Of a stretch of 64,000 bases of DNA, positions 8,642 to 17,717 are shown one piece after another. Positions within the stretch are counted from its first letter, which is position 1, and each line of letters begins with the position of its first letter. The translations under genes were made by a program, and so were the position numbers. The stretch comes from Torpedo marmorata (lineage: Eukaryota), in contig OZ360232.1 of assembly GCA_977017645.1 (NCBI GenBank), positions 28,458,001 through 28,522,000 of the forward strand, read 5' to 3'. The notes beneath the pieces are model-generated. The model had not been told where the DNA came from and made no database searches. It worked only from the letters and a program-made list of their open reading frames with translations.

Positions 8642-11600
8642 AACAATACAGCACAGTACAAACCCTTCGGCCCTCGATGTTGTGCCAACCCATATATCCC
8701 TAAAAAAAAAGTACTAAACCCACCCTACCCCGTAACCCTCCATTTTTCCTTCATCCATGTGCCTGTCTAAGAGTCTCTTAAATGTCCCTAATGTTTCAGC
8801 CTCCACCACCATCCCCGGCAAGGCATTCCAGGCACCCACAACTCTCTGTGTAAAAAACTTACCCCTGATGTCTCCCCTAAACATCCCTCCCTTAACTTTG
8901 TACATATGTCCTCTGCTGTTTGCCATTCCTGCCCTGGGAAACAGGCGCTGGCTGTCCACCCTATATATGACTCTCATAATCTTGTAGACCTCTATGAAGC
9001 CTCCTCTCATACTTCTATGCTCCAAAGAGAAAACTCCCAGCTCTGTTAACCTTGCCTCATAAAACTTGTTTTCCAATCCAGGCAACAGCCTGGTAAATCT
9101 CCTCTGCACCCTCTCTATAGCTTCCACATCCTTCCCTTAATGAGGTGACCAGAACTGAACACAATGTTGCAAATGTGGTCTCACCAGAGATTTGTAGAGT
9201 TGCAACATGACCTCTCTACTCCTGAACTCAATCCCCCTATTAATGAAGCTCAGCATCCCATATGCCTTCTTAACTATCCTATCAACCTGTGCGGCGACCT
9301 TGAGGGATGCATGGATTTGAATCCAAAGGTCCATCTGTACATACACACTCTTAAGTAACTGACCATTAACCCTGTACTCAGCCTTCTGGTTTGTCCTTCC
9401 AAAATGCATCACCTCACACTTATCCAGATTGAAATCCATCTGCCACTTTTCTGCCCAACTCTGCATCCTGTCTATCTCCTCTTGTAACCTTCGACAACCT
9501 TCAGCTCCATCGACAACTCCTCCTTCGTGTCATCCGCAAACTTGCTGACCCATCCTTCCGCCTCTTCGTCCACGTCATTTATAAAAATCACAAAGAGCAG
9601 GGGTCCCAGAACAGATCCCTGCAGCACTCCACTAGTCACCGACCTCCAGGCAGAATATTTTCCTTCCACTAATACTCTCTGCTTTTTTCCTTCAAGCCAA
9701 TTTTTTATCCACACAGCCAAGGTTCCACTGATCCCGTGCCTCATGACTTTCTGGATGAGTCTCTCATGGGGGACCTTGTCAAATGCCTTGCTAAAATCCA
9801 TGTAGACCATATCTATCACCCTACCCTCATCAATTTCTTTTGTTACCTCCTCAAAAAAACTCAATTAGGCTTGTGAGGCACGACCTTCACTTCACAAAGC
9901 CATTCTGACTATCCTTCTGTACTTCTCCAAATGCTCATAGATCCTCTCCTTAAGAATCCTCTCCAATAGTTTGCACACCATAGATGTTAGACTCACCGGT
10001 CTATAATTCCCAGGATTCTCTCTATTACCTTTTTTAAACAAGGGGACTACATTTGCCATTCTCCAATCCTCCGGCACATCCCCTGTGCCAAAGTGGATTC
10101 AAAGATCATCACTACTGCCCCAGCTATCTCTTCTCTCACTTCCCACAGCAACCTGGGGTATATTGCGTCCGGCACCGAGGACCTATCAATCTTGATGTTT
10201 CTAAGAAGATCCAATACTTCCTCTTCCTTAATCTCCACATTGTCCAGCACATAGGCCTGTTCTATTCCGACCTTATCCTGATCAAGCTCTTTTTCTTTTG
10301 TGAATACTGAAGCAAAGTATTCGTTTAGGACCTCCCCAACCTCCTTCGCCTCCAGGCACATTACACCTCCTTTATCCTTTTGCGGCCCCACCCTCATTCC
10401 CGTCATCCTTCTGTTCCTCACATACGCATAGAACGCCTTGGGGTTCTCCTTAATCCTACATGCCAAGGCCTTCTCATGCCCCCTTCAAGCTTTCCTAAGT
10501 CCTTTCTTAAGCTCCTTCCTGGCAACCATATATTTCTCATGAGGCCTTCCAGTTTCCTGCTTCCTATATCTAACATATGCTTCTTTCTTCCACTTGACTA
10601 GTTGCCTCACCTGTTTTATCAGCCACGGTTCCCTTTTCCTACCATCTTTTCCTTGTCCCAGTTGGACAAACCTATCCTGAACCCAGCACAAGTGGTCCCT
10701 AAACTTCCTTCACATTACTTCCGTGCTTTCACCCTTGAACATCTGTTTCCAATTTACTTTTGCTAGTTCCTGCCTCATCCCTTCGTAACTAGCCCTTCCC
10801 CAGTTAAGCACTTTCTTATTATGTCTGTTTTTATCCTTTTCCATAGCTATCCTGAAGCTAATGGAGTTGTGGTCACTCTCACCAAAATGCTCCCCCACCG
10901 AGAGGTCCGCCACCTGACTAGATTCATTACCCAGAACTAGATCTAGTATGGCCTCTCCTCTCATCGGCCGGTCCACACACTGTGTCAGGAATCCTTCTTG
11001 AACACACCTGACAAATTCAGCCCCATCTATCCCTCTTGCAGTCAAGAGGTGCCAGTCAATATTAGGGAAGTTGAAATCTCCCATAACTACAACCCTATAT
11101 TTCCTGCACCATTCCAAGATCTGACTGATTATCTGCTCCTCGGTGTCCCGAGGGCTATTTGGGGGCCTATAGACTACTCCCAGAACAGTGATAGCTCCCT
11201 TCCTATTTCTGACTTCCACTCACACCGACTCAGTGGACACTCCCTCTGCAGCGTCCTCCCTTTCTATAGCTGTGATACTATCCCTGACCAGTAATGATAC
11301 TCTGCCCCCTTTTCTACCTCCCATCCTATTCCTTTTAAAACACCTAAACACCTGCATCAGCCAATCCTGCCCAACCTCCAGCCAAGTTTCTGTAACGGCC
11401 ACAACATCATAGTTCTACGTACTGATCCATGTTCTAAGTTCATCCCCTTTATTCCTAATACTCCTCGCATTGAAATAGACACATTTCAACCCCCCTAACT
11501 TGCTACATTTATGTTTTGTCCCCTGCCTGTTCTTCATCACTAACTCAGAACACATAGCTTCATGCTTTTGTCCTTCTACCCTAATCTCTGCACTCACATT

Positions 11601-11645
11601 CTGATTCCCATCCCCCTGCCAAACTAGTTTAAACCCTCCTCAACA
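8642..11645 (-). mobile_element. CR1 LINE (APE endonuclease + RT), decayed; end of tail displaced to 4346-4361
   Basis: YFNARSI, VVMGDFNFP, GNYRPVSLTS, DFSKAFDKV, KFADDTK, FTQRVVGAWNALP motifs; CR1-type 3' tail. Confidence 0.93.
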
Positions 11646-11908
11646 GCTTGTTCTTTCAAGAAGAACAACTTTATGTGGGTTCACTTAACCAAATTTATTT
11701 TCCTTGTTGAGCTGCTTCAACCAACTTCCAACCAACTCCTGTCATATGTCCTTCCGGTTTCCGCCCAACCGTGCGCATTGCATGCTGGGAAATGTAGTTC
11801 TTATTTACACGCATAATAACATATCTTTCCACTTTAAAACAAAAACAAAAACACAAACAATACTATGTCTACATAACAAAAGTATCTACATTTCGTGGTC
11901 AGTCTCTT

Positions 11909-12654
11909 TCCAACAGTTGCATCTGATGACTTCTGGCTTCACAAAGTCGTTCAAGTTCATTCAGGGCATCCGCAAGATTCAGCTGAAGTTCAGAAATCCG
12001 TGAAGAGGTTCCTGTTTATCAGCAAGTTCACGAACAGTCTCCATCAGCTGTTGATTTTGCTGTAGCAGTTCTTCAACATTACGATAGATCACCAGATGCT
12101 GAGAAATCACTTCAGAGGAACTGCTTATGTCAGCAGAACTAACTTCATCTTCTCGTAAAATATCATGTCCTCGCGCATCTTCTAGTTCCATCAAAAGCAC
12201 CCTATTCTGCTGTGAAAGATTTGACACTTACATTTTGTATCTCTGATTCTCCCTGTTGAGTAATGAAGCATGCTTATTCGCCTCATCAGTGCATTTTTGT
12301 AAACGGCATATTTCCTTCATGGCATCTTCTAATTTAGCTGAGAGATTTGCCACAGATTTTTGCACACGTTCATATTCTTCACACTGGCGCTTCAGAAACG
12401 GAGCTTTCATCTCCACTTCTTTCACAATTTCATCCAAATATTTATTCACTCTCTTTTTTGCTGTTTGCCAATAGCGATTGATCTTGAGCTTCAACATATC
12501 CATTATACAACTCTGTGAGCTTCATTCCAGGCTTCACAATCTTGGCCACAGCTGCTGCAGTGGGCGACATAGCTGCCAGTTCCTCTTCTGATAGTGTGGC
12601 GGCTCCTTTAAGCTTTGTAGTTGAAAGAAGATGGTTTGCATTTTCCTATTCCTT
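11909..12654 (-). pseudogene. TPR: Intronless internal CDS fragment of TPR (nuclear basket coiled-coil protein), disabled
   Basis: Translates to [115 protein letters not shown], recognised as the TPR N-terminal coiled coil. Contains stops and frameshifts. Confidence 0.95.
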
Positions 12655-12996
12655 ATCATGAAGAGACTCTAAAGTTGTTTTCTTAAGAGTTCAGATTCTT
12701 GTATTGATATATTCTTATCCTCTAATGCAGCCATTCTTTCTTTTAGATGCAGCTGAAGTCTATCATTAGAGTCAAGCTGAGTCTCTAACTATCTGAAACG
12801 TTCTTCTATGCTGCCATGCCACTCTTCAGCCTTTGTCAGAGCAGTAATTCGCTGGGCAAGTTCAGCTTCTACTTCTGGTAACGTTTCTGCTCGCTTCATT
12901 GTTTGCTGCAGTTTCTGTTCAGCCAGTTCCAGACGTTCCTGTAACTAACTATTTTTGTTTTCTAGCTGGCATAAGAAGGCATCCTTATTTCCCAAG
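12649..12996 (-). pseudogene. PPFIA2: Intronless internal CDS fragment of a liprin-alpha (PPFIA2/PPFIA4-like) coiled coil, disabled
   Basis: Translates to [74 protein letters not shown]. Paralogue assignment is tentative; not present in the ORF track. Confidence 0.88.
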
Positions 12997-12997
12997 A

Positions 12998-13505
12998 GTA
13001 AAAACATAAAATGCTGGAGAAACTCAGCCGGTCAAACAGTGTCCTTTATGTTGCAAAGGTAAAAATACATAACCGACGTTTCGGGCTTGAGCCCTTCATC
13101 AAGGTATGAAAGAGTGTCGGCAGGCATCCGAACAAAAGGATGCGGGGGGGAAAAGGAAGGGTGGCAAAGGCAGGAGATGATAGGTGGAGAAGGGAGGAAG
13201 GGGACAGCAGCGATCAGGGGGAGGAGGGATGGCTAGGTGGGTGGAGGGGGAATGGAGGGGAGAACTGTAAAAACTGGGAAGAGGGAAGGGAAAGAAAAGG
13301 CGATGCTGGTTAGCAGAAAGCAGAGAAGTCGATGTTAATGCCATCTGGCTGGAAAGTGCCCAGACAGAAAATAAGGTGTTGTTCCCCCAATCTGCAGGTG
13401 GTCAGGGTGGGACAGTACATAAGGCCATGGACAGACATGTGAGCATGGGAGTGTGACTCAGAATTTAAATGGTTGGCTACTGGGATGTCTTTGTTGTAGC
13501 GGAGG
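12998..13505 (-). mobile_element. Penelope-like 3' fragment
   Basis: Same terminal repeat and end-of-GIY-YIG sequence as 1650-2120. Confidence 0.85.
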
Positions 13506-14424
13506 GAGCCTTCTTTGTGATTGCATCAACGTGGATGCTCCAGGACAGATCCTCGGAGATGTTGACACCCAGGAATTTGAAGTTCTTGAGCCTCTCCATG
13601 ACTGAGCCCTCGATAAGGACTGGGTCGTGTTCCCCTGACTTCCTCCTGAAGTCCACAATCATCTCCTTGGTTTTGCTGACATTGAGCTCAAGGTTATTGC
13701 CATTACACCATTCAACGAGCTGATCTATCTCCCTCCTGTACGCTTCCTCATTGCCGTTTGTGATTCTGCCGACAATTGTGGTGTCATCGGCAAACTTGTA
13801 GATGGCATTGGAATTGTGCCTGGCCACACAGTCATGGGTGTATAACGAGTAGAGCAGTGGACTAAGCACGCATCCTTGGGGTGCGCCTGTGTTGATAATC
13901 AGTGAGGAGGAGACGTTGTTTCCAATTCGTACTGACTGTGGTCTTCCGATGAGAAAGTCAAGGATCCAGTTGCAGAGGGGAGTACAGAGGCCTAGAGTTT
14001 GTAGTTTCTTGACCAGCATTGAGGGAATAATGGTATTGAAGGCCGAGCTGTAGTCGATGAAGAGCAGCCGTATGTATGAATTGCTGTTTTCGAGGTGATC
14101 CAGAGCTGAGTGGAGAGCCAGCGATATTGCATCTGCTGTGGAGCGATTGTGACGATAGGTGAATTGCAGTGGGTCCAGATCTTTGCTTAGGTATGTGTTA
14201 ATTCTGGCCATGACCAGCCTCTCAAAGCATTTCATCACAGTAGAAGTTAGTGCTACTGGGCAGTAGTCGTTGAGGCAGCCCACACTACTCTTCTTGGGTA
14301 CCGGGATGATTGATGCCCTTTTGAAGCAGGTGGGAACCTCTGACTGCCGCAATGAGAGGTTGAAAATGTCCGTGAACACTCCGGCTAGTTGGTTGGCGCA
14401 GATTTTCAGTACCCTGCCAGGTAC
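13506..14424 (-). mobile_element. Rex1/Babar-like LINE RT fragment
   Basis: [43 protein letters not shown] motifs; near-identical to 22420-23255. Confidence 0.88.
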
Positions 14425-14503
14425 GCAATGTGTAAGTGTGCTGAGTGCCTTCTGTCTGCGACTCCCGCGAAGTTTAAATGGCCCGTTCTCTGGCTGTTTA
14501 AAC

Positions 14504-14590
14504 TCCCGCGGTGTTGTTGTAGTACTTGCGTGAGCTGTTTAAAGGTCCCGCGGTGTTGTTGTAGTACTTGCGTGAGCTGTTTAAAGGTCC
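14504..14590. repeat. Perfect 42-bp tandem duplication within an unassigned CpG-containing segment (14428-14618)
   Basis: TCCCGCGGTGTTGTTGTAGTACTTGCGTGAGCTGTTTAAAGG x2. Confidence 0.9.
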
Positions 14591-15051
14591 TGCGGCCCGA
14601 CGGAGACTACCTCTTCTACCATACAGCCCCCTTTTACTGGAACGTTCTCTCCAGTGTAGCCTGTCACTTTTAATTTCACAGGATAAATGTTGCTCTTCAC
14701 GGTGAGGGTCTTCTAATTGTCCATAGATAACAGATTCATCTGGGCTCCAGTGTCAAACTTAAATGGAATTACTGTCTCATTCACAGTCACTGGAACGATC
14801 CATTCCGTTTTGACAGCATCAGTCTGAAGTGAATCCACGAAGAATTCTTCTATTTCTTCGTCCACTGTGTGCACCTTTCTTTTGTTATCCCCTGCTTTGC
14901 AGCACTTTGAAAAATGATTCTTCTTCCCACATTTATAGCAGGACTTTCCACAGGCAGGACACATCTTTGGAATATGTCTACCTCAGCACCTGTTGCATTT
15001 GCTGTTTGAGCTTACCACTTTGCTTTGTTGTTGCTTTGGGAAACTCCCGGT

Positions 15052-15714
15052 CCAGTCCTCATCGAGGGCTCAGTAGTGGAGAGGGTCAAGAACTTCAAAT
15101 TCCTGGGTGTCAACATCTCCGAGGTTCTGTCCTGGAGCATCCACGTTGATGCAATCACAAAGAAGGCTCGTCAGCGGCTATACTTTGTGAAGTGTCTGCG
15201 GAGATTCGGTATGTCAGCGAAGACTCTCATAAACTTCTACAGGTGTACCGTGGAGAGCATTCTGGCTGGTTGCATCACTGCCTGGTATGGAGGCACCAAC
15301 TCTCAGGACAAGAGTAAACTCCAGAAGGTTGTTAACTCGGCCTGTGACATCACAGGCACCAAACTTCACTCCATCGAGGACATCTACATGAGGCGGTGTC
15401 TTAAAAAAGCAGCCTCTATCCTCAAAGACTCCCACCACCCAGGCCATGCCCTCTGCTTCCATCGGGAAAAAGGTACAGGAGCCTAAAGACGAGCACTCAA
15501 CGGCACAAGGACAGCTTCTTCCCAGCTGCAATCAGATTCCTGAATAATCAATGAACCAAAGACACTGCCTTACTTTTCATGCACTATTATTTATAATTTT
15601 TTATAGTAATGTCGTAAGATGGTTAATATGAATGTTAATTGCACTATGATGCTGCCGCAAAACACCGAATTTCATGACTTGTTCATGACAATAAATTCTG
15701 ATTCTGATCTGATT
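15052..15714 (+). mobile_element. Rex1-like LINE 3' fragment inserted in Gypsy B gag
   Basis: [19 protein letters not shown] motif, (TTCTGA)n tail, possible TSD CTCCYGGT. Confidence 0.85.
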
Positions 15715-16775
15715 CTCCTGGTGCTCTGCTTATCTGTTTTCATCGCATGCACTGTTGTGTCTATCTTGTGCAGCTCCTTAGCTTGTGGTCGTGTGGTCTC
15801 TGCTGTCTTACACAAATTCACAGCCTTTTCCAGAGTCAAATCTTTTTCATGCAACAGTCTTTCTCTAAGTCCATTATCTGGGATTCCGCAAACTATTCTG
15901 TCTTTTATGAGTGATTTTTTCAAATCTCCAAATTCACAGGACTTACTCAGTGTGTGAAGCTCTGCTAAGTATTGGTCAAAGCCACTTACCTTGTTTCTGG
16001 TCACAGGAGAGAAACTTGAATCTCTCAAATGTGACGTTTTTACTTGGAACAAAATAATCCTCAAATTTTGTCATCAGAGTGTCCAACGTGAAAGCTGTCT
16101 CATCAATTTCAAAATTGTTATAGATATCCAAGGCATCTTCACCCATCACGTGCAGAAACATAGATGCTTTCCGTTTTCCATCGGTCTCTCCCATTCCACC
16201 ACTACTAAATAAATTTTGAATCGCTGTTTTAAGCATTTCCAATTATCAGCTAGATTGCCGGTAAATTGCATCGCTGTGGGAGGACTTAACTTATCCATGC
16301 TTACAAACTATTGTCTTATCTTACTCACTCAGACACTTCTGACACCATGTTATGCTTGTTCTTTCAAGATGAACGATTTTTCGTGGGTTTAACACTTAAC
16401 CGACTTTATTTTCCTTGAGCTGCTTCCACCGACTTCCAACCGACTCCCGTCATATGTCCTTCCGGTTTCCGCCCAACCGCATGCATTGCATGCTGGGAAA
16501 TGTAGTTCTTAATTACACACATAGTAACACACTCATATTTGTAGCAACCACGAACATCCTATTGTGGCGGTTGCATACCTACCTTCGTCGGGAGGAGAGT
16601 GAGAGTGTCAGGATCACTTGTGTGGCAGTGAGCCAATGAGAAGGTCAGAGGAGTTTAGCTGAGTGGTGTTTGGGGAGTTGAAGAATGCCATGTTTTGTCT
16701 AGTGAATAATGAAAAAAAGTCGACTTTATGGTGTGCTGAAAGAAATGAGTGAGTGTATCCTTTATCTTTTTGTAG

Positions 16776-17717
16776 TGTTACAAATTCAAACCAGCAACGA
16801 CAGAAGACGCAATGCAAAAGGGGTAAAATTGAAATTTATATTTATTAAATACAATTAAACATATAATTTCACAACAATTAACCCCACTATAAACATCTAT
16901 AAACACTATTCTTATCTAAAAGGTGTGTATGTGTGTGTGTAAAGCCCAGACCATTACAGTCTGTGCCCAAACCTCATGTAAAAATGGAAAAACTTTCCCC
17001 AAAAACCCAAGGTCAGTCATAAAAACAAGTCAGTCAAAAAAAAATAATACAGTCCACAAAAATTCACTCTCTAAGTTCAGGTTCCAAATTCAGCTCTGTG
17101 TGCTGGTAGAAGGACTTCTTAATGAACGTTGGAGAGAGACAATGACTGTTTATGCTTACGAATACTTGGCTTGCTTTTCTTCTCTGATGATGTTCCCTTT
17201 TTGTGTTTTCATAAGGATTGCGAATTCAGATCCGTTTTGGATGAAGGCATATACTTGGATTTCACAGCCGGTTCCTCACAAAAGCTGTTCTCACAACTCA
17301 GGATTCTGCCGAATCATCAGGCCTTGTTTTTCTCCCAGCCTTTTTCCTGGGATGCACAAGCCTGGACTTTTCTGATTCAAGAGACTCTGTGCAATTCTCC
17401 CCATTTCTTCTCTGGGATGCACAGGCCTGGATCCTACTGAGTTCTCCCGCCTTTTCACTCCAAAACTGCTACTGAGTTAATTTCCACTTTAGGCCTTACA
17501 ATAGAGAGAGAGAGTTTCTCTCCAGCCTGTTTCGTCCAAAGTTTTTTTCCAAGTGTGCTTTTCACAGTTTGTCTCCCCCTGATGTCTCTCTCTGGTAAAT
17601 ACAAGAAGTCCTGAGCAAGTTAACTCTTTCAGTACCAGGTCCCAGTGTATACTCCAAAAGACTTCATCCTTCCTGCTTACCGTCCGCAGTCCAAATTGTC
17701 AGTCATGGTCCATAACA
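16776..17717. mobile_element. Solo LTR (~940 bp) inserted in the 5' LTR of Gypsy A
   Basis: TGTTA...TAACA termini and exact TSD GTAG (16772-16775, 17718-17721); absent from the other two LTR-A copies. Confidence 0.88.

Follow-up and report, generated by a model that had tools for sequence, protein, structure and literature searches.

LTR-mediated retroposition, in which long terminal repeat (LTR) retrotransposons take up host messenger RNA, has been described together with multi-gene chimeras in the accessible text of Tan et al. 2016 (PMC5131818), and the available portion of surveys in conifers counts many captures of gene fragments by transposons in bulk (PMC13477047). The maize element Bs1 and the mouse element 'Super' are known as end products only, and whether such chimeras are assembled in one round with many switches or by combining earlier captures was open. 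In this study, a window of 64,000 nt from the ray Torpedo marmorata (GCA_977017645.1, contig OZ360232.1, positions 28,458,001 to 28,522,000) was analyzed, and all window coordinates below refer to this stretch. On its minus strand, at 11646-16531, lies a Ty3/Gypsy element in which pieces of two host genes, PPFIA2 (liprin-alpha-2) and TPR, substitute for about 2.7 kb of pol, the part with reverse transcriptase, RNase H and integrase. The element belongs to a multi-copy family which almost certainly originated by template switching during reverse transcription and then spread by transposition. The two-gene form itself probably arose by a template switch between an element carrying PPFIA2 and an element carrying TPR, and to this reading a probability of roughly 0.7 is assigned.

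The captured cargo is spliced host mRNA. The two host genes lie on separate contigs (PPFIA2 on C48 and TPR on C22). The family's PPFIA2 piece corresponds to five host exons, with four introns (2198, 6291, 2271 and 648 nt) removed at the splice sites, and its TPR piece to six host exons, with five introns (89, 2643, 342, 351 and 10901 nt) removed in the same manner. Compared with the genome's own genes, the window copy has 3 of the 4 PPFIA2 exon joins, the missing one falling within a 99-nt deletion, and 5 of the 5 TPR joins; mismatches were found at 19 of 349 aligned bases in PPFIA2 and at 26 of 746 in TPR. Both pieces are sense to the element and internal to the mRNA, their outer ends lie inside exons, and no poly-A was seen at the cargo, so that the description in a first-pass annotation of the window (sense, intronless, internal to the coding sequence, without poly-A) holds. 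The same annotation had recognized a liprin-alpha, which is now refined to alpha-2: over residues 311-491 of an electric ray protein, the identity of a sibling copy is 96%, and with the proteins of other cartilaginous fishes it is 92-94%. Pfam matches above the cut-off within the cargo were LIP-1 (E 1e-19 and 8e-11) and TPR-like (E 2e-18), and in undamaged stretches the protease, PPFIA2 and TPR share a single reading frame. The element retains the state of other vertebrates at one site in TPR and at one in PPFIA2 where the host gene has changed; the copies therefore preserve older host sequence.

A parent element that retains pol was found in the same genome. The same protease running on into reverse transcriptase (RT) has 398 exact genome matches, and at least 28 of 30 inspected continue into RT for at least several codons. 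Parent copies have the LTR of the chimera, a length of about 4.4 kb and 5-bp duplications. In one of them (L195), RVT_1, RT_RNaseH, Integrase_H2C2 and rve follow the protease in that order, which is the Ty3/Gypsy order; a Pfam search of the first 110 residues beyond the parent's protease gave no match. Among solved proteins, the nearest relatives of this copy are those of Ty3, namely RT (E 6e-21) and Gag-Pol (E 5e-20), and the parent may resemble the Mag group. Other Ty3/Gypsy hallmarks, namely TG...CA LTRs, a tRNA primer site, a polypurine tract (PPT) and a target duplication of 4-6 bp, are present in the family, the window copy being without the LTR tip and the duplication, and no env was seen in the chimera family. 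The primer binding site (PBS) pairs with the 3' end plus CCA of an intron-containing tRNA-Leu(CAA), for which 16 genomic matches to the T-loop plus complement were obtained. The anticodon CAA was read directly in three of these intron-containing genes (L265, L268 and L270); ARAGORN was inconsistent on them, calling them Thr or Asn.

Comparison with the parent also defines what the cargo replaces. The joins are direct, and the chimera is about 2.8 kb long against 4.4 kb for the parent. The piece that follows TPR had been read as an integrase C-terminal remnant ('KRL..EM*'), and this reading was rejected: the piece is the start of the 3' untranslated region (UTR) in 13 of 13 parent copies printed, and since the pol stop directly precedes it in all 11 of those that have no local deletion, the piece lies beyond pol. 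In addition, a 1.8-kb parent with an internal deletion, its RT start joined to its integrase end, was observed without cargo (L191, 1181-2975).

Each junction in the family falls on short sequence common to both partners, as is expected from template switching. The exact matches amount to 8 nt at Gypsy to PPFIA2, 5 nt at PPFIA2 to integrase in the PPFIA2-only form, 6 nt at PPFIA2 to TPR and 6 nt at TPR to the Gypsy UTR; in 200,000 random joins for each, such matches had chances of 0.0002, 0.007, 0.002 and 0.003, respectively, with a mean of about 0.7 shared nt. At gag to TPR in the TPR-only form, 12 of 13 nt match. The 6-nt match between PPFIA2 and TPR spans a PPFIA2 exon-exon join, and the full match is therefore present only in spliced RNA.

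The chimera has moved as a family of about 260-310 copies. A DNA search for relatives gave 40 scored candidates, with cargo in all 40, and most of the 39 siblings fetched have the arrangement LTR, gag, protease, PPFIA2, TPR, UTR, LTR in about 2.8 kb when free of insertions. The PPFIA2/TPR junction has 241 genome matches (at most one mismatch; control 0) and the protease/PPFIA2 junction 157 exact matches (control 0); with the recall of these patterns among copies found by other searches (49/54 and 31/62), the estimates become about 265 and 314 copies. Exact 5-bp target duplications were identified by eye in 20 of 28 siblings. By script, 49 loci were examined, and 16 of the 19 chimeras with both ends parsed had exact 5-bp duplications, all different, the other three having one mismatch; the flanks also differ between siblings. 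The junction counts and distinct target duplications demonstrate secondary retroposition as a non-autonomous element, a feature of LTR-mediated retrocopies, and the genome-wide junction search proposed in the first-pass annotation supports the dispersed multi-copy family that it had suspected. Outcomes named there as contrary to capture, which were fragments from a single exon or with introns, a target duplication or poly-A around the cargo, and independent LTR insertions, were not encountered.

In public contigs, the PPFIA2/TPR join was spanned with more than 31 letters per side in 5 of 8 runs (X1, X7, X12, X13 and X15). These five carry different coded organism labels, which may not correspond to separate species, and the assembly itself may derive from one of the runs. 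In run X14 the two genes are joined across a deletion, and for runs X2 and X11 no contig over the join was among the matches listed. Among the runs listed as containing the sequence, none is recorded as RNA; one guessed to be RNA has junction contigs, and contigs cannot demonstrate transcription. In run X13, the contig depth of the TPR part of L262 (5324-6103) is about 100 times that of the PPFIA2 part. Judging from the loose ends, this TPR may be of the host type, and contigs cannot rank expression. No annotated PPFIA2-TPR fusion protein was found in public sets among the best 120 of 199 matches (top coverage 58%, lengths 254-809).

Elements that carry only one of the two genes coexist with the chimera. 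Among 30 copies sampled at the 5' junction, two were without TPR, and a genome search gave nine PPFIA2-only copies. All five that retain the 5' end have the 5' breakpoint of the chimera, and in this form PPFIA2 extends 10 nt beyond the chimera's junction before it joins integrase. One change that neither the host nor the protein of another ray has is common to 69 of 79 chimeras and to 8 of the 9 PPFIA2-only copies. A search with the TPR sequence upstream of the junction returned the host gene and two further loci, both Gypsy elements, and a third, truncated TPR-only copy was found later, giving three in all. In these, gag joins TPR 183 nt further upstream than the TPR start of the chimera, and the one copy that keeps its 3' end has the TPR/UTR breakpoint of the chimera. 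Furthermore, the 99-nt PPFIA2 deletion and a 19-nt TPR deletion occur in all four combinations (9, 12, 11 and 21 copies), which indicates that template switching among copies was common. Compound arrangements were observed as well: at L246 (3653-6251; G000:C68, 30.12 Mb), a TPR-only element faces a PPFIA2 fragment in inverted, head-to-head orientation; this fragment carries the 99-nt deletion and its join to integrase lies elsewhere, which adds another type of junction, and similar inverted or doubled arrangements were seen at L162, L167 and L169/L170.

The chimera has the 5' half of the PPFIA2-only form and the 3' half of the TPR-only form, so that one switch accounts for it. Under the favoured route, the parent's reverse transcriptase, inside the particle, would have jumped to PPFIA2 mRNA and back, and the same kind of jump would separately have been made with TPR mRNA. 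The two defective RNAs would later have been co-packaged, and a single jump at the 6-nt match would have joined the two halves. The resulting chimera, having kept its LTRs, primer site and PPT, would then have been replicated in trans in germ cells, with enzymes supplied by the parent. Alternatives would call for renewed packaging of host mRNA and two to four more switches. The first-pass annotation had proposed transduction of two cellular mRNAs by a Gypsy element; the capture is borne out by the lost introns, the junction matches and the parent, and two separate captures, with the mRNAs brought together afterwards, are more probable than a joint one.

Several observations weigh against this route. 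The order of events was obtained by parsimony, and the gag tree, with 42 chimeric, 19 parent, 6 PPFIA2-only and 3 TPR-only rows (those with fewer than 550 aligned bases, or 250 for TPR-only, being left out), is a star that does not order the forms. One-gene copies are not measurably older: their cargo-host distances are 0.036 (n=8) and 0.029 (n=1), compared with 0.033-0.034 for chimeras, and their LTR distance is 0.068 (n=2), compared with 0.098 (n=19). The common 3' breakpoint is known from one TPR-only copy, itself without a 5' LTR, and the exact match at gag/TPR is only 4 nt at the crossover. At L246, cargo RNA was rejoined to integrase elsewhere after the 99-nt deletion, which demonstrates that later back-recombination with the parent does occur. 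A +1/-1 difference in TPR was considered as a shared derived mark and rejected, because three bird proteins have the element's state; the mark is ancestral and supports nothing.

The first of the alternatives is that the chimera came first, in a single round of reverse transcription through Gypsy, TPR mRNA, PPFIA2 mRNA and Gypsy, and that the one-gene forms came later from chimeric RNA, through recombination with host mRNAs and a return to the parent's sequence. Three-switch chimeras are on record (accessible text of PMC5131818), the one-gene forms are not older and number just 9 and 3, compared with 241 for the chimera, and the rejoining at L246 was late. Each one-gene form, however, has host sequence missing from the chimera, so that both host mRNAs would have to be packaged twice and four further switches made, and this order of events is considered unlikely. 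A stepwise history in one lineage, in which a PPFIA2-only element took up TPR mRNA straight from the host and the TPR-only form was later derived from the chimera, is judged about equally unlikely. It is consistent with the PPFIA2-only form being a transposed family with its own target duplications (exact in 4 of 7 printed) and with the agreement of chimeric gag with PPFIA2-only gag at 6 of 6 diagnostic columns, although parents agree at 5 of these 6; it would require two packagings of TPR mRNA and exceed the favoured route by two switches.

Splicing or trans-splicing from a PPFIA2 donor to a cryptic AG in the TPR exon, with the fused mRNA captured whole, is very improbable. The junction does coincide with the end of a PPFIA2 exon, and TPR has an AG there, but these six letters are also where the two spliced mRNAs match each other, a donor is no longer present at this point in PPFIA2-only RNA, and the existence of one-gene forms that share the outer breakpoints would be left unexplained. 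Finally, a LINE-made processed pseudogene inside a Gypsy element, or segmental duplication, is suggested by a window copy rich in LINE insertions and without a target duplication, but it is already refuted by cargo that replaces pol instead of interrupting it, by the absence of the poly-A, own target duplication and mRNA 3' end of such pseudogenes, and by siblings with different flanks and target duplications.

The order and coordinates on the minus strand given in the first-pass annotation were confirmed. The element runs 5' to 3' on that strand as LTR, tRNA-Leu primer site, gag, protease, later insertions, PPFIA2, TPR, UTR, PPT and LTR, with the following features:

16348..16531, minus strand: 5' LTR, 184 nt, TG...CA
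16334..16347, minus strand: PBS, 14 nt, complement of the tRNA-Leu(CAA) 3' end plus CCA
15715..16298, minus strand: 5' part of gag, frameshifted, matching siblings and the pol-bearing parent
15044..15714, plus strand: later non-LTR insertion dividing gag, not in intact siblings, with a PF09004 match
14621..15043, minus strand: gag CCHC zinc knuckle and aspartic protease with the 3' end cut off, from the sequence and PF13650
13000..14620, minus strand: later non-LTR insertions occupying the place of about 256 nt of the element, with PF00078 within 13480-14538
12649..12995, minus strand: spliced PPFIA2 coding fragment, 5' part lost, internal 99-nt deletion
12649..12654, minus strand: chimeric junction, a 6-nt stretch that occurs both in PPFIA2 mRNA (over an exon-exon join) and in a TPR exon
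11908..12654, minus strand: spliced TPR coding fragment, six exons, 19-nt deletion
11836..11907, minus strand: Gypsy 3' UTR, which comes after the pol stop in parent copies
11824..11835, minus strand: PPT, from the sequence
11646..11823, minus strand: 3' LTR, final 6 nt gone

The window copy is damaged, since non-LTR insertions divide gag and replace the roughly 256 nt that hold the protease end and the PPFIA2 start. The gag-protease/cargo junction is hidden by them, as had been cautioned from the window alone, and is readable in siblings, which retain these 256 nt. Siblings likewise supply the evidence on target duplication, none being visible in the window copy. The insertion within gag is presumably a Rex1 element, and that at 13000..14620 is assumed to include a Penelope. 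A Pfam profile search of gag gave no match, nor did one of 13313-13525, and the PF13650 match to the protease is weak (E 0.0035, below the cut-off). The LTR pair aligns over 175 sites, 18 of which differ (Kimura two-parameter distance, K2P, 0.11), and the 99-nt and 19-nt deletions are each common to a subfamily. Two tandem 42-nt copies lie within the inserted non-LTR element at 14497-14580. Next to the element on the minus strand, LINE endonuclease-like frames at 10329-11640, which we assume to be CR1-like, adjoin the clipped 3' LTR, and an unrelated TG...CA-ended stretch resembling a solo LTR lies at 16776-17500, just upstream of the 5' LTR.

The median cargo-host distance is 0.033-0.034 (87 and 82 copies), and the median K2P between paired LTRs is 0.098 for chimeras (n=19) and 0.09 for parents (n=5), and thus chimera and parent were active in the same period. 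The shark mutation rate in the available text of PMC10587355 is per generation and does not calibrate the age of the family. Judged by its substitutions, the cargo is most likely a neutral passenger. Across 90 distinct chimeric copies, with private and shared classes, dN/dS from transitions is 0.96-1.02 for PPFIA2 and 0.81-1.24 for TPR, and thus purifying selection on the captured frame was not detected. Near-fixed differences from the host are few (PPFIA2, 2 nonsynonymous and 1 synonymous; TPR, 2 and 5), changes in the host included. Selection for an open frame was also considered, as two widespread PPFIA2 deletions are in frame (36 and 11 copies), and was rejected: the widespread 19-nt TPR deletion shifts the frame in 45 copies, and 14 of 39 private indels of at least 10 nt also keep the frame, which leaves no signal of frame selection.

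By default, the chimera would outnumber its precursors through the chance success of one source copy. It is improbable that the cargo helped the spread, for example as a Gag-protease-liprin-TPR fusion docking at the nuclear pore basket, or by improving the export or packaging of the RNA. A ratio of two-gene to one-gene copies above 25:1, a copy number near that of the parent and a first chimera in frame through all three parts point in that direction, and the neutral dN/dS and the widespread frameshift speak against a protein role; a role at the RNA level, as part of the same proposal, is likewise improbable. If true, cargo-aided spread would be a Gypsy analogue of selected retroviral transduction.

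These findings illustrate that exon shuffling by a vertebrate LTR element can be amplified into the hundreds of copies although nothing points to a benefit. As the parent, both one-gene forms and the chimera coexist, the order of assembly is testable across related ray genomes. Moreover, as several hundred copies exist at about 97% identity, they will cause confusion in annotating PPFIA2 and TPR, in mapping reads and in probing for these genes; the family could also yield small RNAs against both.

Among known systems, the animal LTR retrocopies of Tan et al. (PMC5131818, accessible text) are similar in their partial, spliced, sense mRNA in place of internal open reading frames (ORFs), in short matches where the template is switched (median 6 bp in that study), in two- and four-gene chimeras (CG4799_CG11924_r and mouse 'Super') and in the renewed movement of some as non-autonomous elements. 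The family described here shows the features of such retrocopies, with introns removed, partial mRNA, internal ORFs replaced, no poly-A or own duplication, and short shared sequence. In contrast, the accessible text lists 18 insertion sites for nine fly retrocopies, as against about 260-310 copies of one chimera here, and reports neither one-gene precursors of a chimera nor a survey of cartilaginous fish. Maize Bs1, as presented in the same text, is likewise an LTR element with fragments of several unlinked genes and switch points common to all copies, but it has three genes, one to five copies and possibly a protein product, whereas the present family has two genes, hundreds of copies and neutral cargo. 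The crocodilian elements CrocERV29 (KIT-ligand) and CrocERV31 (nectin3), in the available part of PMC4299795, are also vertebrate LTR elements with captured host mRNA in several copies, older than a speciation there; they are retroviruses with one gene, 9 and 6 copies and purifying selection, unlike a Gypsy element with two genes and dN/dS near 1. The capture of FAM8A1 by HERV-K and the transducing retroviruses share template switching at short matches that yields a helper-dependent element (as presented in PMC5131818, accessible text). These differ in having a single cargo and an infectious retrovirus lineage. A literature search made largely without subscription journals and repeat databases found no prior report of this chimera family, nor one that describes a two-gene chimera alongside its two precursors. 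In conclusion, the mechanism is already known, and the copy number and the preserved intermediates are new.

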